A DNA stretch of 64,000 nucleotides from a phage, in assembly GCA_037574385.1 (NCBI GenBank), contig GCA_037574385.1_4529.1; one strand, written 5' to 3'. A model generated the notes under the pieces. It saw nothing but the letters and a program-made list of their open reading frames with translations. It did not search any database and had not been told where the DNA came from. Made by a program: the position numbers and the translations under genes. Below, piece by piece: positions 293 to 47,047 of the stretch (positions are counted from its first letter, which is position 1; the number at the start of each line of letters is the position of its first letter).

Positions 293-2379
293 TATCCTTG
301 GACAAATTTAAACGGAACCGATTCCAAATCCATTAAAGATGCTAACAGTTTCAATCCTTTAGGTGCACTGTTTATTTCTACGAATGAGGCAAAAGATACC
401 GGCTCATCTGATTCGATTTCACCCGTCATAGCAACCACCTCGCCTGTTTCCATGAGAACATCACCGTCGTAAATGACTGCTTCATCCAACTGGTCAGAGG
501 ACATGACTTCGGCTTGAATAAATTTAAGGTTGGATTCTAAACCTGCACCAGTGTCAGATGACGCATCTGTAATTTTATTTATCTGCAAGAGAATGCCTCT
601 AGGCAAAATAATTTCTTGCTCATTAGGGTGATTACTCAACTGTCCTGGATAAATCACGTTAACTTTATGAGCACCATCAATAGCCCATCCAACGTTAACA
701 CGGATTTGTTCTGGTGCATGCATAGCTGTTCTTACTTGACTAGGAGAAATAGTAACACCTTCGTCATTATTGTCAATGTTAAGCTCTTTGCGAACTTCTT
801 CAGGAGCAAGTCCAAGGGCAACGTTTTCTTTAAACCCGCCAAAAATAATAGGAGCTAATGAAGTAGAAACATAGTTTCTGAAGTAGAATACCTTATTTTT
901 AACCATTGCTTCATAAATAGGCATTCTGATAGACTGAGCTCTATACAACGTTAGTCCTTCAGGTAAACGGTCTCCGTTTAAAAACGCTGAATCAAGACCA
1001 TCAATAGCGCGTTTAACTTCATCTTCATCTGCAACATCGTAAAAATCTGGTTTATAACGTCCTAACAACATATTATTGATATCGGTATACGCAGAAGAGG
1101 CATATTCACGAATAGCTCGTTTTTCAGCAACAGAGTATTGTTTAGGGTCCCGATTCATTGTTATATTAAAGGTGCCTCTAGCCGATTCTCGTGCATAAGT
1201 ATACATCACATTAGACAAGAACGCTGATTTACGTTGTTTCCAAGTTTTTTCAGATACTTCAGCTAAAACGTCGTCAGCCAGTTGGAAATTATCTCGTCTA
1301 AAATCTTCAAACCATTCGTCTTTAATAGAGTCTGCAATTTCGTTTGCAGCTTCAACAAAAGCAGCTAATGCTTTAACAGATGTTGTTTTTTCGGTTTTAA
1401 TTTTCTTAGCAAACTTTTCTAAAGTTGGCTTAATAACACTACCATAAGAAACTTCATCAGCAAATCTAAAGGATTCATCAATACGATTATAAATCTTATT
1501 TTCGATATCAGCAACTAAAGTGCCTTTTGCTGTGGATGATGCTTGGGCTAGTACGATTTCATATGCTTCAGGAAGTAATTCGGCTGTAGCTGGGCCACTA
1601 ACTTCTTTAGCAGAATTTTCGTATTTCTGGAATAACTCACCTTCTTGGCGGTCAGCTTCTAAAGATTGGCTTGCTGCAATAGCACGACGAGAAATTTTAG
1701 TATGAGCAATAACAGGCTTATCTTTACGTTTTTCTTCTACAGCAGCAATAGAACCAGCGATAGCAGTTTCTTTGGTGACCGTTTCGCCGGTCTTTTTACT
1801 CACATAAACTTCGCCAACATCAGAATCTACTTTCGTGTACAACTCTGTGTTAATGTTAGGGATGCCTTTAATATCTTCAATGTTGGCATTTTTACGAACC
1901 ATCATCACATAGGTGTGTTTACCTGTGAATTGATACATTGCAGACAATACTTTAAAACGACCACCAGTTTTAGTAGAAACTAAACGAGCAAGAAGAGTTT
2001 GAAGCTGCTGACCACGTCCTTTCAATTTCTTGGTAGGGAATCGGAACAGAACTGCATCCATACGAAGAGCTTTAACCTGTTCATATACTGTATTGAAAAT
2101 GGTGTTGATTGCATCAATAGGAGCAGGACCAAGGCCATTTTTCAATTCAGCGAGATTACCCTTTTCAGACAGACTCATAATAACAACATGAGCATATTTA
2201 TCGCCAAGTTTAACTTGTTTTACAGCGTCGCCTTCAGAAAGGTAAGAGAATAAGCGAACTACGATGTTTGTATCGATATCACCAATTTTCCAGACTTGTG
2301 GAACTTTAGCTTTAGGGTTCAAATTGACGACAGGAAGACTGCCTTCAGATTCAAACACTTCATTTAATTGTTCAGACAT
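292..2379 (-). CDS. alt: Alt-like ADP-ribosyltransferase (packaged internal head protein)
   Basis: 695 aa; size and sequence character match T4 Alt (682 aa); lies immediately downstream of DNA ligase as in T4. Confidence 0.8.
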   Translation of the reverse strand: MSEQLNEVFESEGSLPVVNLNPKAKVPQVWKIGDIDTNIVVRLFSYLSEGDAVKQVKLGDKYAHVVIMSLSEKGNLAELKNGLGPAPIDAINTIFNTVYEQVKALRMDAVLFRFPTKKLKGRGQQLQTLLARLVSTKTGGRFKVLSAMYQFTGKHTYVMMVRKNANIEDIKGIPNINTELYTKVDSDVGEVYVSKKTGETVTKETAIAGSIAAVEEKRKDKPVIAHTKISRRAIAASQSLEADRQEGELFQKYENSAKEVSGPATAELLPEAYEIVLAQASSTAKGTLVADIENKIYNRIDESFRFADEVSYGSVIKPTLEKFAKKIKTEKTTSVKALAAFVEAANEIADSIKDEWFEDFRRDNFQLADDVLAEVSEKTWKQRKSAFLSNVMYTYARESARGTFNITMNRDPKQYSVAEKRAIREYASSAYTDINNMLLGRYKPDFYDVADEDEVKRAIDGLDSAFLNGDRLPEGLTLYRAQSIRMPIYEAMVKNKVFYFRNYVSTSLAPIIFGGFKENVALGLAPEEVRKELNIDNNDEGVTISPSQVRTAMHAPEQIRVNVGWAIDGAHKVNVIYPGQLSNHPNEQEIILPRGILLQINKITDASSDTGAGLESNLKFIQAEVMSSDQLDEAVIYDGDVLMETGEVVAMTGEIESDEPVSFASFVEINSAPKGLKLLASLMDLESVPFKFVQG

Positions 2380-2644: not shown

Positions 2645-4116
2645 GGTCCAAATACGTCTTCAAACGAATCCGCTTCTGTTTTATCAAAACGGAACCCTTT
2701 AATAATTGGAAGGAAAATACCTACAGTACCTTCACGGCCTTTAGAATGAACCCAACCATTACATTCGCAATCAGCAATACGTCCGATCAATTTACCTTCA
2801 CGAGCTTCGGTCATTAATCGTTCACGGTCTAAATCATGACGCTCGTCTAAAGGAATAAGAACCTTTACACCGTCAACTGTTTTATGAGTTGTATCTTTAA
2901 AACCTGAACCACAATCGGTTGTAATACGACGACAACGTGATACGAGTTCGACACCGCCTAATTTGTTAGGGTCTTTAGAGTGTTCATAGTATCCTACAAC
3001 TTCTAAAGCGATATCAATAACTTCTTTAAATTTAATTAGGTTCTTAGAGCGTTTGTTTTCCCAATATGAATCACGGTTTTTAAGGATAATACCTTCAAGA
3101 CCTTGGTCAACATATTTTTTATAAACCACTTTAGCTTCATCAAGATTACGAACTAACTGGTTTTCGATAGGTTCAATTCGTTTAAAGCCTTCAGCCATAT
3201 TTTCAAGAGCAGCAAAACGAACATCGTATTTCTGACCTTTAATTTTGCCATCAGAATAGACTTCATCTAAAGGAACATAGTCCCAGGCTTGAAGAACCAT
3301 ACCTTCCGCTTCTTTAGGAGAAATAGTCCCTTGAAGAGATTTATTTGCTAAACCATTTGAAGTGCTACGGTCTGCAACTTGTACTTCTTCGGATTCTTCA
3401 TTATCACCAAATAAGAACGACAGGTCATTTCCTGAGCTCACAGCCTTTTTAATATCAAATGAATGATAAACTAATTCACCATCAATTAAAACCCCATTAG
3501 GGTGTCTTTCACGAGCTTCTTTAGTCATTTCCATTAGTTCATCTGCTAATAGGGTAAGACCATGGTATTCGTTACCGGCGCGAGAAAAGAATTGAACACC
3601 ATCATCGCGAACTTCAGCGAAACAACGAGCACCATCTGCTTTTAATTGGGCAAATGCGGGCCATTTAATATTTTTAGTAATCAATTTCTCATCATATGCA
3701 GATGCTAACATCTGTGGTTGCAATTGAATAAGACCAGGCCACACCTTATTCGCGATAGACACTGAAGCACCTACTTCAAGGTCGCGCATCATTACACGAC
3801 GAAGGACTTCTACATCATCAGGTTTACCATCAGCGATATAACCCATGAGCTCTTTAATTGCAGCATTACCAGTGAGTTTACGAGTGGCTAATGTGAACTC
3901 AATAAAATCCAACATGTCATCTAATTCAAGAAGACCATATGCTTGGGACCTTTCACCTGGTCCTGGCCATTTCTTAATATAATACTGGATACCACGTGCA
4001 TATGTTAAACGATACACACGTTCAAGTAATTTGTTGTCCTTATTTTTCTTAAGGATTTCCTGTTTTGTTTTAGTAGAACCGATCGCAGCTATTTGGTTTA
4101 AAATATCTAAAATCAT
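2623..4116 (-). CDS. 30: ATP-dependent DNA ligase
   Basis: 497 aa; adenylation motif KADGAR (KxDG); strong overall resemblance to T4 gp30 (487 aa). Confidence 0.85.
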   Translation of the reverse strand: MILDILNQIAAIGSTKTKQEILKKNKDNKLLERVYRLTYARGIQYYIKKWPGPGERSQAYGLLELDDMLDFIEFTLATRKLTGNAAIKELMGYIADGKPDDVEVLRRVMMRDLEVGASVSIANKVWPGLIQLQPQMLASAYDEKLITKNIKWPAFAQLKADGARCFAEVRDDGVQFFSRAGNEYHGLTLLADELMEMTKEARERHPNGVLIDGELVYHSFDIKKAVSSGNDLSFLFGDNEESEEVQVADRSTSNGLANKSLQGTISPKEAEGMVLQAWDYVPLDEVYSDGKIKGQKYDVRFAALENMAEGFKRIEPIENQLVRNLDEAKVVYKKYVDQGLEGIILKNRDSYWENKRSKNLIKFKEVIDIALEVVGYYEHSKDPNKLGGVELVSRCRRITTDCGSGFKDTTHKTVDGVKVLIPLDERHDLDRERLMTEAREGKLIGRIADCECNGWVHSKGREGTVGIFLPIIKGFRFDKTEADSFEDVFGPWSQTGL

Positions 4117-8744: not shown

Positions 8745-9326
8745 TTATTCACCACAAAAGTTTCGGATTTGTTCCCAATTCAGAGAACGAAGATTATTAC
8801 GAGAGTACTGAATTACTTCAATACCAGCTTGTTTTAGAATATCTGCCCAATTTTCAGGAGATCTGTCATATAATTCTGCGTATACAACCTTTTTAATACC
8901 TGACTGCGTAATAGCTTTAGTGCAATCAGGACACGGAGAAAGCGTCGTATATAACGTAGCACCTTCAATAGAATTACCTTTACGAGCGGCAAACAAAATT
9001 GCATTCAATTCTGCGTGGATTTCATTATTAGCAGACCATGCACTATGAGCAGCTCGATGTTCTTTAGCTAAAACAAAATTATCTACCCGTCCAAATGCTG
9101 TAGTGCCTTCTTTATGACCAGCAATGATGACAGGACTCGGCTTGTTCTTCAACCAACCTTGTTCAGTAGCATGGTCACAACAGTTTATACCACCTGCCGG
9201 GCTACCGTTATACCCAGTAGAAATGATACGTCCATCTTTTTCAATGACGGCACCTACTTTCCATGAACAACATTTTGATTCTTGAGAAATCAGATATGCA
9301 ATCTGAAGGTATGTGCTAGCTTTCAT
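8745..9326 (-). CDS. cd: dCMP deaminase
   Basis: 193 aa (T4 Cd 193 aa); zinc-binding motifs HAELNAI and SPCPDC. Confidence 0.85.
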   Translation of the reverse strand: MKASTYLQIAYLISQESKCCSWKVGAVIEKDGRIISTGYNGSPAGGINCCDHATEQGWLKNKPSPVIIAGHKEGTTAFGRVDNFVLAKEHRAAHSAWSANNEIHAELNAILFAARKGNSIEGATLYTTLSPCPDCTKAITQSGIKKVVYAELYDRSPENWADILKQAGIEVIQYSRNNLRSLNWEQIRNFCGE

Positions 9327-10318
9327 TATTGAACCTTATTAATATAAGTTAACAGCTCTTTAGTTTGTTCCCAACTGATGCACGCATCGGTAACGGAAAC
9401 GCCATAGGACATATTATCAGAAATTTTTTGATTTCCTTCATGTAGGAACGATTCTATCATAATTCCTTTGACCAAATCATTAGCTGCTAAATTTTTACCA
9501 ATACCAATTTGATTGCTATAATGCCCATCAGCGTTTGCATGGCTACAGTCAACCATCACATAATGATTCAGACCTACTGCCCTTGCTTTGTTAGAAGCTT
9601 CTTGAATATCAGAAGAATGATAGTTCGGGCCGTTGGTCCCGCCACGCAATACGATATGCGTATTCTGATTACCTTCAGCTTCAACAATGCCTACAGTACC
9701 ATCGACGTCCATACCCATATACCGATGAGGCCAGGCGGCACTATACATCGCGTCTGTAGCTACTTTAATAGAACCATTGGTTGCGTTCTTAAAGCCTACG
9801 CACATCGGTAGACCTGAAGCAATTTCACGATGTGTCTGACTTTCAGTCGTACGGGCGCCAATAGCAACCCATGAGAAAATACCAGAAAGATACTTAATCG
9901 TGAATGGGTCTAATACTTCAGTTGCTAATGGAAGTCCCATACGTAGAAGTTTACGACACAATGTTCGTGCAACTATAAGACCGTGGTTCATATCAAAACT
10001 TCCGTCAAGATATGGATCATTTACAAGACCTTTCCAACCTACGGTAGTTCGAGGCTTTTCAAAATAAACGCGCATCACTAACAGAACATTAGGAAGACGA
10101 GTTTGAAGTTCAGCCAGACGTTTGCCGTATTCAACAGCAGCAATAGGGTCATGAATTGAACAAGGACCTACAACAATAAGTTTGCGTGGGTCTTCACCGT
10201 TCATAATCGAATTAACTTGTTCGCGATGAGAAGCCACTTGTGATGCGTAAGCTTCCGACAAAGGAATAATCTCAGCCAGTTCTTTTGGAGAAATAAGTTT
10301 TCCGACGACAGGTAACAT
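9326..10318 (-). CDS. 3-deoxy-D-arabino-heptulosonate-7-phosphate (DAHP) synthase, class I AroG-like
   Basis: 330 aa; long colinear matches to E. coli AroG: VVGPCSIHDP, VMRVYFEKPRTTVGWKGLVNDP, IGARTTESQTHRE, GFKNATNGSIKVA, ESFLHEGNQ, ITDACI. Confidence 0.8.
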   Translation of the reverse strand: MLPVVGKLISPKELAEIIPLSEAYASQVASHREQVNSIMNGEDPRKLIVVGPCSIHDPIAAVEYGKRLAELQTRLPNVLLVMRVYFEKPRTTVGWKGLVNDPYLDGSFDMNHGLIVARTLCRKLLRMGLPLATEVLDPFTIKYLSGIFSWVAIGARTTESQTHREIASGLPMCVGFKNATNGSIKVATDAMYSAAWPHRYMGMDVDGTVGIVEAEGNQNTHIVLRGGTNGPNYHSSDIQEASNKARAVGLNHYVMVDCSHANADGHYSNQIGIGKNLAANDLVKGIMIESFLHEGNQKISDNMSYGVSVTDACISWEQTKELLTYINKVQ

Positions 10319-10438
10319 AACAATCCTTAGGAGATATAAACAGATTCTGATTCAACAATACCTTTAACCGGATTAGACAGGTTAAGTTGGTAGTGCTCAG
10401 ATTTATGACCATTCTCGATAGTAATGAGATAGCTCTCA

Positions 10439-10675
10439 TTATAGTGTTCCATATACTCGAGTTGCTTCAACAAGACCATCACTGCCTAATTTAAGATTAG
10501 TAATTTGGTCACCATCTTTAGGATTAACGATTATGAGAAAAGAACGTGGAGATTCTTGAATAACTCGTAATGTTGCATCCTGGAAACGTTCAGACACTTT
10601 ATTGATGAGTGCTTGAGCAAATTCTTTTACTTTAATCTGAAATTCGTGTACTGTAATTGGATTTTCACTTAGCAT
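10439..10675 (-). CDS. Hypothetical protein
   Basis: 78-aa ORF; SD GAGGAAATTGAAATG. Confidence 0.5.
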   Translation of the reverse strand: MLSENPITVHEFQIKVKEFAQALINKVSERFQDATLRVIQESPRSFLIIVNPKDGDQITNLKLGSDGLVEATRVYGTL

Positions 10676-10702: not shown

Positions 10703-10732
10703 ATCATATCACAACTCTACGGTGTTGTAAAC
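10703..10732 (-). promoter_or_regulatory. Early promoter module with inverted repeat around -10
   Basis: GTTTAC-N18-TATGAT; arms GTAGAGT / ACTCTAC; leader CAACAATGAGGAAATTGAAATG. Confidence 0.5.

Positions 10733-11411: not shown

Positions 11412-11412
<1 letters not shown>
11221..11412 (-). CDS. Hypothetical protein
   Basis: 63-aa ORF abutting pseT stop. Confidence 0.4.
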
Positions 11413-12498
<1,086 letters not shown>

Positions 12499-45946: not shown

Positions 45947-47047
45947 TTACGCTGTGAAGATTTTATCCCACATTGCAACAACTGCATCTCGGTTATACTT
46001 CTTCCATACTGCTTCAGCACGTTTAACTCGAGCTTCGTATGTGTCAGTGAATTCTAATACAGCTTTTGTGTAAAGCGCAACTACTTCTTTCTTAGGAGTA
46101 GAGGAATCAATTTCTACACGCACAGTATCTGGGTCATATTCGAATGTCGCATGCGGATAATCCTTAAAAACTAACTGAATTACAGGGACACCTTTAGAAA
46201 TGGCTTCAATAGAACTATTCTCTACCGTACCTGTGTCAGGACACGTATTAATAAGTGCTTTAGCTGTTTTAAGACGTTCCATAATTTCACTGTGTGGAGC
46301 ATCAATAATAACAGGATACTTAGCCGGTGGTGCCCATTTACTAGGACAGTATCCTGCGCCATTTTCGCCTAGTGCTTTAATCGCTTCAAGAGCAACATCA
46401 GTACGACGCATTTTAGTGTCATAACGTTGTGCACTAATAATCAGATCAGTCGCCGGAAGAACTTCAGGTTTCTCATTCAAACAAATAACCGGATAATCTT
46501 CGGCTTCAAACAACGGATTTGCTCGCCAATAATCATAATCAATTTTGTCAGTCAGACCTGAAGTCATATAACAATATTTGCGTTCAAATTCACGGAAGGC
46601 TTTAGTAGGAGCATAACTCTTACCACCGTTCTTATGAATTTGAATAGTCTGGTCCCAAATTTGAACAATGCCACGAGATACCGGCTCAAACGGTGTTGCC
46701 ATAAAATTCTTATGAACTTTAGAGAGACCTGCGTCTTTAATTGCCTGAACGGTTAGTTTAGTCGGTTCCATTGTAACAACGAAATCGTACTCATTAATGC
46801 CGGCTAGTTCAACAATCTTACGAGCCATAGTATAACTCATACCTAGACTGAATTTAGTCAGATGACCAACAGGATGATGATTAACCTTCCAATCACCAAA
46901 CGTGTCATTATCAAAGCCGATATAATCAATATCAGCACCGATGGACACAAGATATTTCAACACATTTAAATGTACTGCTTCAAGACCACCTTGTACACGT
47001 TCTGGGTTAAACGGGACTGCGCGAGATGGGATAAACATAACTTTCAT
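45947..47047 (-). CDS. GT-B fold glycosyltransferase (GT4-like); candidate DNA hypermodification enzyme
   Basis: 366 aa; N-terminal MKVMFIPSRAVPFNPERVQGGLE and C-terminal TCPDTGTVENSSIEAISKGVPVI resemble GT4 donor-binding motifs; sits where T4 carries gene 60/mobA. Confidence 0.6.
   Translation of the reverse strand: MKVMFIPSRAVPFNPERVQGGLEAVHLNVLKYLVSIGADIDYIGFDNDTFGDWKVNHHPVGHLTKFSLGMSYTMARKIVELAGINEYDFVVTMEPTKLTVQAIKDAGLSKVHKNFMATPFEPVSRGIVQIWDQTIQIHKNGGKSYAPTKAFREFERKYCYMTSGLTDKIDYDYWRANPLFEAEDYPVICLNEKPEVLPATDLIISAQRYDTKMRRTDVALEAIKALGENGAGYCPSKWAPPAKYPVIIDAPHSEIMERLKTAKALINTCPDTGTVENSSIEAISKGVPVIQLVFKDYPHATFEYDPDTVRVEIDSSTPKKEVVALYTKAVLEFTDTYEARVKRAEAVWKKYNRDAVVAMWDKIFTA

Follow-up and report, generated by a model that had tools for sequence, protein, structure and literature searches.

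The enzyme 3-deoxy-7-phosphoheptulonate synthase (DAHP synthase) represents the classical feedback-controlled gate of aromatic biosynthesis. In the E. coli isoenzymes AroG and AroF alike, the main chain of the inhibitor is held by Gln151 and Ser180, and Asp155 of AroG contributes a stabilising salt bridge (PMC9529685). For aromatic amino acid production, AroG/AroF variants have been engineered (P150L, S180F, F209A/S, D6G-D7A), and single AroG mutations at these positions abolish the inhibition by phenylalanine (PMC9529685, PMC6520568). P150L leads to complete Phe resistance, S180F and F209A/S are feedback-resistant (PMC9529685; for S180 also PMC6520568), and with Asp6/Asp7 replaced AroG stays active and becomes strongly Phe-resistant (PMC6520568). 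Here we analyse a DAHP synthase gene of a phage, which is located on the minus strand at 9326..10318 of contig GCA_037574385.1_4529.1 (GenBank assembly GCA_037574385.1); the whole analysed stretch of 64,000 nucleotides is called the window in the following. The source phage is an RB69-like Mosigvirus of the T4 family; over the 2 kb around the gene, the identity amounts to 98.9% with Shigella phage ESh27 and to 95-99% across 140 phage records.

The gene itself is already known, since the records of far more than a hundred phage genomes contain it under a name. By tblastn, the protein of the window was found in 213 phage records, in 101 of them at 99% identity or more, with 100% identical copies in phiC120, CCU7, p000v and the O157 typing phages 3 and 6. 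The annotations vary between phospho-2-dehydro-3-deoxyheptonate aldolase, AroG, aroF and DAHP synthase; named instances are ORF64 of phiC120, 'AroG' of Shf125875, 'aroF' of the O157 typing phages and the DAHP synthetase of Klebsiella phage KLB31. The phiC120 genome paper mentions a DAHP synthetase domain (PMC8022965), and a paper on Klebsiella phages lists the KLB31 homologue as an amino-acid auxiliary metabolic gene (PMC11845039). These earlier records and papers name the domain or propose aromatic amino acid supply, nothing beyond, and our literature search found no discussion of the regulatory site, the synteny or a link to DNA arabinosylation for the phage gene. Hence, the gene call alone offers nothing new, and it is the regulatory detail that could matter. 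The sole non-obvious point is that the feedback site has been rebuilt in a conserved manner throughout the clade, and this predicts an enzyme that is deregulated by nature.

Intact catalytic residues and a rebuilt feedback site

The open reading frame (ORF) codes for 330 amino acids from an ATG start and cannot be extended upstream, since this start is the first ATG, GTG or TTG past the preceding in-frame stop. A first-pass annotation of the window had matched it to class I DAHP synthases across nearly its whole length, which is borne out by Pfam DAHP_synth_1 (PF00793; residues 36-323, E=5.2e-75, 252 bits against a cutoff of 25.5) and by the NCBIfam equivalog TIGR00034 for aroFGH (residues 6-327, 427.7 bits against 173.2). 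The model NF009395 scored 455 bits against a cutoff of 343, and the AroG- and AroH-specific NCBIfam models stayed below their cutoffs (363 versus 568 and 386 versus 463, respectively). Among solved structures the best match is E. coli AroF (PDB 6AGM, E=5e-105, residues 8-327). Over the full length the protein shares 51% identity with AroF, 47% with AroG and 44% with AroH; the fold can be regarded as already fixed, because the identity to solved structures amounts to 47-51%. It also matches PHROG 5045 (E=3e-182), which belongs to the category 'moron, auxiliary metabolic gene and host takeover'.

Single residues were compared in an alignment of the window protein with AroF, AroG and AroH of E. 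coli, with 10 homologues from annotated phage genomes and with 120 database homologues. Neither the window protein nor any member of the phage clade shows a change at the 14 residues by which AroG binds the metal, phosphoenolpyruvate (PEP) or erythrose-4-phosphate (E4P) (in AroG numbering C61, R92, K97, P98, R99, T100, G163, A164, R165, K186, R234, H268, E302 and D326). The PEP-binding set is thus kept as R83, K88, G154-A155-R156, K177 and R225 (AroG R92, K97, G163-A164-R165, K186 and R234), and the following catalytic elements can be placed on the DNA:

9326..10318, minus strand: coding sequence of the type I-alpha DAHP synthase, 330 amino acids (ORF, PF00793, TIGR00034, 6AGM, PHROG 5045)
10160..10162, minus strand: metal ligand C53 (AroG C61), invariant in the alignment, codon verified
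10046..10057, minus strand: K88-P89-R90-T91, the unchanged KPRT motif for E4P/PEP binding (AroG K97-T100), from alignment and codons
9539-9541, minus strand: metal ligand H260 (AroG His268), invariant in the alignment, codon verified
9452-9454, minus strand: metal ligand E289 (AroG Glu302), invariant in the alignment, codon verified
9386-9388, minus strand: metal ligand D311 (AroG Asp326), invariant in the alignment, codon verified

With AroF (PDB 6AGM/6AGL), AroG and AroH the phage protein shares the Cys-His-Glu-Asp ligands, the PEP residues, the KPRT loop and the beta6a/6b insertion. It differs from them by an N-terminus that is 8-9 residues shorter and misses the equivalents of Asp6/Asp7, by short deletions near AroG 286-290 and 311-316, and by a phage-like G+C content. 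Judged by its residues, the assignment as a full-length, catalytically competent type I-alpha (AroF/G/H-type) DAHP synthase is confirmed; the enzyme would catalyse the metal-dependent reaction of PEP and E4P to DAHP and inorganic phosphate. A pseudo-enzyme, which the loss of PEP- or metal-binding residues would have indicated, is ruled out by the complete catalytic set together with the low ratio of nonsynonymous to synonymous substitutions (dN/dS, see below).

The question whether the feedback-inhibition residues are conserved as well, also raised in the first-pass annotation, turned out to be the most informative one, because these residues are replaced or missing in the phage clade. The changes in the window protein are (if not stated otherwise from alignment and codons):

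10298..10318, minus strand: shortened N-terminus with 7 residues before the equivalent of AroG L16, the Asp6/Asp7 strand is missing (alignment; ORF not extendable upstream)
9893..9898, minus strand: I141-K142 instead of AroG P150-Q151, an inhibitor contact and hot spot of feedback resistance
9881..9883, minus strand: G146 instead of AroG D155, the salt-bridge residue that steadies the regulatory segment
9806..9808, minus strand: P171 instead of AroG S180, whose side chain binds the inhibitor main chain
9719..9721, minus strand: Y200 instead of AroG F209
9677-9679, minus strand: A214 instead of AroG T223

The short N-terminus is a feature of the entire clade, as 5-9 residues precede the L16 equivalent in every phage member compared to 13-50 in 98 cellular homologues. 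Moreover, an unbiased column scan of 31 phage against these 98 cellular sequences, which asked for at least 90% conservation within both groups and a different residue between them, returned only six positions, namely P150I, Q151K, D155G, S180P, F209Y and T223A. For Asp6/Asp7 and the positions 150, 151, 180 and 209 among the changed sites, a part in feedback control is backed by experiments, and the effector site that is typical of AroG, AroF and AroH (Asp6/Asp7 strand, Pro150-Gln151, Ser180 and Phe209) is not present. Hence, as far as the alignment tells, the phage enzymes naturally combine changes at five experimentally defined feedback-resistance sites with untouched catalytic residues. The positions are the same as in the engineered AroG/AroF variants; in contrast to those variants, the phage substitutions (Ile, Lys, Pro and Tyr) are natural, combined and strongly conserved, and their effect is a predicted one.

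Our preferred reading, to which we assign a probability of roughly 60%, is an early-expressed, probably feedback-insensitive DAHP synthase that acts as an accessory auxiliary metabolic gene, whereby we infer the insensitivity from the altered pocket. However, it must be mentioned that several points weigh against it. All six separating positions fall into regulatory segments, which comprise 40 of 325 positions (hypergeometric P=2.5e-6), but these segments were delimited after the result had been seen. When the family was reduced to 150 representatives (clusters at 50% identity), Q151 or S180 was exchanged in 73 of them; variation in the pocket is therefore common, even if the phage signature occurs in none of the 150. 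Furthermore, in 18 non-redundant members the 12 contact positions of the pocket vary less (0.35 bits) than the protein as a whole (1.01 bits), which fits a new function of the site at least as well as a simple loss; such a pocket could serve to stabilise the active state or to bind a new ligand. The gene is also dispensable, as 11 Mosigvirus records lack it and RB69, one of these, grows well in its absence. With regard to early expression, the promoter scan overall gave fewer sites than shuffled sequence, so that the candidate promoter described below is a lead only. Finally, our literature search found no functional study, enzyme assay or infection phenotype for any phage DAHP synthase.

The conserved pocket leads to an alternative explanation, in which the rebuilt pocket would be a new regulatory site for an effector other than an amino acid, such as a nucleotide or some metabolite specific to the phage. 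DAHP synthesis would then be tied to the metabolic state of the phage, which is more than a simple deregulation. The residues I/K/G/P/Y/A are fixed at 94% or more in the 18 non-redundant members, which span 55-100% identity, and the exchange of the neutral Gln for a cationic Lys (in one clade member Arg) is in line with this idea, as are the nucleotide-related neighbours: the product of the adjoining cd is, according to the RB69 record, allosterically controlled by hydroxymethyl-dCTP/dCTP, and the homologue of a jumbo phage adjoins a thymidylate kinase gene. However, in the early region of a T4-type phage nucleotide genes are to be expected as neighbours by chance alone, a ligand is not inferable from sequence, and the residues might just as well be conserved because an enzyme that has lost its N-terminal strand needs them to stabilise its active conformation. 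We consider this explanation unlikely. In its most specific form, the T4-like phages of Enterobacterales would have kept a dedicated DAHP synthase for longer than their genera have been separate and swapped its sensor for a strictly conserved pocket for a new effector, and this pocket would couple the entry into the shikimate/chorismate pathway to the nucleotide or DNA metabolism of the phage, which we regard as quite unlikely.

Related pocket changes exist in other phage lineages. The group of Aeromonas phage HJ05 combines S180P with a replaced Q151 (regulatory signature AHPPVT at the six positions), and the same two changes occur in a jumbo IMG/VR contig of 261,788 bp, whose DAHP synthase (gene 2956..4005, 48% identity) carries the signature PNHPYS. 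These shared changes are suggestive only, and convergence across phage lineages was set aside as support, since 73 of the 150 family representatives vary in the pocket. Most giant-virus and other 'viral' IMG/VR contigs keep the canonical PQDSFT. Some further observations were made on these lineages. The HJ05 enzyme (locus L014, 2899..4062) has 387 amino acids, 38% identity, a His-rich N-terminal extension and intact catalytic residues, and the nearest cellular relatives of this lineage reach at most 46% identity. In the jumbo contig a topoisomerase-IB-like gene and the thymidylate kinase gene flank the synthase. Dozens of putatively viral giant-virus metagenome bins (IMGVR GVMAG) harbour DAHP synthase genes at 40-48% identity with PQDSFT, and some database proteins (799 amino acids, others 600-770) carry a second DAHP synthase stretch or extra domains of considerable length.

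Age, slot and mobility of the gene

The DAHP synthases of T4-like phages have 319-343 amino acids, share 55-100% identity with the window protein and are encoded on complete Straboviridae genomes. They were monophyletic in 25 of 30 neighbour-joining bootstraps, in a tree that was rooted on a very divergent sequence and leaves the sister group of the phage clade unfixed. The closest cellular proteins reach 51-55% identity only and belong to mixed phyla. Pairwise dN/dS against the homologues of six other phages was 0.10-0.23 at a synonymous divergence that is saturating, which indicates purifying selection, and the G+C content of the gene (41%) is near to that of the phage (38%) and far from E. 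coli aroF/G/H (52-53%). Because of the low identity to the host, the phage-like G+C and the phage-only clade, the gene is an old phage gene, and a recent capture from the host is ruled out by identity, G+C and phylogeny. The description as 'host-like' in the first-pass annotation was thus overstated for a gene with 44-51% identity to the host isoenzymes. A phage protein family, its presence on bona fide phage genomes and purifying selection are the properties of an auxiliary metabolic gene, and all three were found here.

The position of the gene is conserved, too. In all examined lineages, the interval between cd.2 and cd is the slot of the DAHP synthase:

Kanagawavirus Entb_45 and PEi20: DAHP synthase in the cd.2-cd slot, cd follows directly
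Kagamiyamavirus EcS1: same slot, 1-2 small ORFs or homing-endonuclease genes before cd
Marfavirus Klebsiella phage EI: same slot, 1-2 small ORFs or homing-endonuclease genes before cd
Winklervirus X20: same slot, 1-2 small ORFs or homing-endonuclease genes before cd
Bragavirus phiP4-3: same slot, 1-2 small ORFs or homing-endonuclease genes before cd
Uncultured T4-like contig: order frd-td-...-pseT-x-DAHPS-cd, cd follows directly

In the window, the surroundings of the gene are composed as follows:

8745..9326, minus strand: cd, dCMP deaminase of 193 amino acids, immediately downstream (Pfam dCMP_cyt_deam_1, E=5e-26; named cd in related phages)
9324..9328, minus strand: TAATG stop/start overlap of DAHP synthase and cd, read from the sequence
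10324..10328, minus strand: Shine-Dalgarno sequence AAGGA, 5 nucleotides before the DAHP synthase ATG, overlapping the TAA stop of the preceding small ORF
10327..10482, minus strand: ORF of 51 amino acids that immediately precedes the synthase gene, a degenerate second copy of the 3' half of cd.2 (matches positions 43-76 of the DUF7320 profile; PHROG 15876)
10439..10675, minus strand: cd.2-like gene (DUF7320), the first of the apparent transcription unit (Pfam DUF7320, E=1.5e-35; 95% identity to RB69 cd.2)
10703..10731, minus strand: promoter-like TTTACA-17 nucleotides-TATGAT with TG extension upstream of cd.2, a weak candidate for an early promoter
11412..12311, minus strand: polynucleotide kinase gene pseT, upstream flank (Pfam scan)

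Further upstream, nrdA, nrdB, td and frd are situated on the same strand, and the gene is co-directional within the cd-pseT block. It is thus embedded in a nucleotide-metabolism operon that it shares with cd, as stated in the first-pass annotation, and the stop and start codons indeed abut. On the minus strand, CAA-TAA-TG can be read, in which the final A of the DAHP synthase stop (9326) is the A of the cd ATG. The wording 'fused into the cd operon' holds in the sense that the TAATG couples the two genes translationally; it does not hold for the products, which are two separate proteins and not a fusion protein. In the record of phage Mizar a ribosome-binding site is annotated at the position that matches AAGGA.

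Within Mosigvirus the gene behaves as a cassette. It is present in ~140 of ~151 records and absent from 11, among them the laboratory phage RB69; the others (10 in all) include ECO111 5-P, five records of mar005P1, JK42, JK36 and moha. In the RB69-type arrangement (NC_004928; locus L002, 7743..8503, corresponding to 8745..10675 of the window), the small ORF and the DAHP synthase are missing and cd.2 is joined directly to cd, and a clean indel at the TAATGA stop/start junction separates the genomes with the gene from those without it. The C-terminus of the 51-residue ORF aligns more closely with cd.2 of other genera than with Mosigvirus cd.2, hence this ORF is probably a recombination scar from the entry or movement of the cassette. 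In Klebsiella phage EI (locus L011), a SegB-like and a MobE-like homing-endonuclease gene lie on either side of the synthase (981..1575 and 3510..4048), which suggests an endonuclease-driven mobility of the cd-pseT interval. The clean indel, the cd.2 scar and the Seg/Mob genes in EI could all be expected if the synthase were a passenger that brings no benefit to the phage and is simply carried by a recombination or homing-endonuclease cassette. A mere passenger would hardly show dN/dS values of 0.10-0.23 at saturating synonymous divergence, catalytic residues that are all invariant over at least six genera, a conserved position and a retention in 140 of ~151 Mosigvirus records, so that this explanation is highly improbable.

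The cd region of T4 is expressed early, and the synthase would share one early-region message with cd.2 and cd, which is the basis for the assumption of early expression in our preferred reading. No terminator-like site was found on the coding (minus) strand between 8000 and 13000; the single match is on the plus strand inside the DAHP synthase ORF. A strong sigma-70-like sequence with TG (TTTACC-17-TATAAT) is also located there in antisense orientation, on the plus strand at 9494..9522; this match has probably arisen by chance in AT-rich DNA, because the scan yields fewer sites than shuffles. One more observation concerns cd. In the RB69 record (locus L002, 7743..8252) it is annotated with 169 instead of 193 amino acids; the N-termini are identical, and near the C-terminus the RB69 record shifts the frame and ends with ADILKPSWY and a stop, compared with ADILKQAGIEVIQY... 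in the window. Either the frameshift is real, or the old RB69 record contains a sequencing error.

DNA arabinosylation and carbon flow

Arabinosylated hydroxymethylcytosine has been demonstrated in RB69 (PMC6024577), and the window encodes a homologue of the proposed hydroxymethylcytosine arabinosyltransferase at 45947..47047 on the minus strand (366 amino acids, 99% identity to RB69 ORF003c). It is situated between rIIA and gene 39 and has no Pfam match. DAHP synthases and the 3-deoxy-D-manno-octulosonate 8-phosphate (KDO8P) synthases, which use arabinose-5-phosphate (Ara5P) and PEP, both belong to PF00793. E. coli DAHP synthase takes Ara5P poorly in vitro. From the homology of the two enzymes the first-pass annotation had considered, as a speculation, an altered sugar-phosphate specificity with a link to DNA-sugar modification, by which a KDO8P-like enzyme would feed or tune the arabinosylation of the DNA.

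The sequence comparisons speak against such a specificity. KPRT, the loop by which DAHP synthases can be told from KDO8P synthases, and every other substrate-contact residue are the same as in AroF/G/H, no KdsA-type model was matched in the NCBIfam scan of the window protein, and BLASTP against E. coli KdsA gave no detectable similarity (E=0.24). KdsA is hence related as a distant TIM-barrel PEP-aldolase of the same Pfam family, and it differs from the phage protein, which has the KPRT motif and the N-terminal and beta6a/6b decorations. The gene content does not fit either. RB69 makes arabinosyl-hydroxymethylcytosine without any DAHP synthase gene, and the published route from ribulose-5-phosphate (Ru5P) via Ara5P to UDP-arabinose consists of isomerase, mutase and nucleotidyltransferase only (PMC13326640), therefore an enzyme like DAHP synthase is not needed. 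Consumption of Ara5P would even compete with the arabinosylation.

The two systems are also not inherited together. The arabinosyltransferase is distributed over ~156 Mosigvirus records and 55 Acinetobacter phage records, and the arabinose-5-phosphate isomerase was found in 57 Acinetobacter phages and in at most 3 Klebsiella phages. Transferase and isomerase are present without a genuine DAHP synthase in about 55 Acinetobacter phages, and of the 25 Klebsiella phages with DAHP synthase at least 22 are devoid of the isomerase. The overlap of synthase and arabinosylation in several related genera is what shared ancestry predicts. Consequently, a link of the DAHP synthase to DNA arabinosylation is not supported, and the KDO8P/arabinose link was rejected on the basis of the motif, the KdsA comparison, the RB69 gene content and the occurrence of transferase and isomerase across phages. 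We regard the KDO8P-like reading as largely refuted and its probability as very small, by which a tempting but wrong tie between DAHP synthase and DNA arabinosylation in RB69-like phages is removed.

Some side observations belong to these distributions. The arabinosyltransferase homologues of the ~55 Acinetobacter phages share 42-43% identity and usually occur in two places per genome. One contig labelled 'Acinetobacter phage MD-2021a' (CAKLQH020000056) contains aroF beside cobS and alpha-ribazole phosphatase genes; judged by these neighbours it looks like a mislabelled piece of bacterial chromosome, and it was discarded as a carrier of a phage DAHP synthase. Two UNVERIFIED faecal scaffolds, which are short and unannotated, were left out.

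The same distributions also bear on another role of the enzyme, namely a drain of substrates. An unregulated synthase would pull E4P and PEP from central metabolism and thereby re-route pentose-phosphate or glycolytic flux to the pentoses for nucleotides and, in arabinosylating phages, to Ru5P/Ara5P. The synthase indeed co-occurs with the arabinose-5-phosphate isomerase in Mosigvirus, EcS1, Entb_45, phiP4-3/vB_SdyM_006 and KLB31 (PMC11845039) and sits within a block of nucleotide-precursor genes; in Winklervirus the co-occurrence is split, since X20 has the synthase and its congener CBH8 the isomerase. However, shared ancestry confounds this pattern, and it breaks down on both sides, because RB69 and ~55 Acinetobacter phages are without synthase and at least 22 Klebsiella phages without isomerase. 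Moreover, by textbook stoichiometry a drain of E4P should lower the pentose yield of the non-oxidative branch, and each turnover costs one PEP. We therefore judge a substrate drain to be decidedly unlikely.

Consequences for phage and host

According to our preferred reading, the DAHP synthase belongs to an old clade that is restricted to T4-like phages and has its fixed slot beside cd, in which the barrel stayed untouched and the allosteric site for Phe, Tyr or Trp of AroG, AroF and AroH was rebuilt. The N-terminal Asp-Asp strand has been deleted and the residues that hold the inhibitor main chain have been replaced (Gln151 by Lys, Ser180 by Pro), together with Pro150, Asp155, Phe209 and Thr223. 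Most likely, aromatic amino acids would then be unable to switch the enzyme off, and carbon could keep entering the shikimate/chorismate pathway after the phage halts host gene expression. Rich media would not stop this flux, although the host isoenzymes are both repressed and inhibited there. Which downstream product pays we likewise infer: it could be the aromatic amino acids for the burst of virion proteins, or chorismate-derived cofactors such as folates and quinones, of which folates would be used by the neighbouring td/frd and by the hydroxymethylase chemistry.

If the alternative with a new effector were true, the phages would have rewired the allostery of a textbook control point in a virus-specific way. 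If our preferred reading is true, the clade would provide a ready-made feedback-resistant enzyme for the production of aromatic compounds, and it would represent a natural case of a virus that overrides the end-product control of its host by keeping the catalytic machinery and removing the inhibitor-binding elements.

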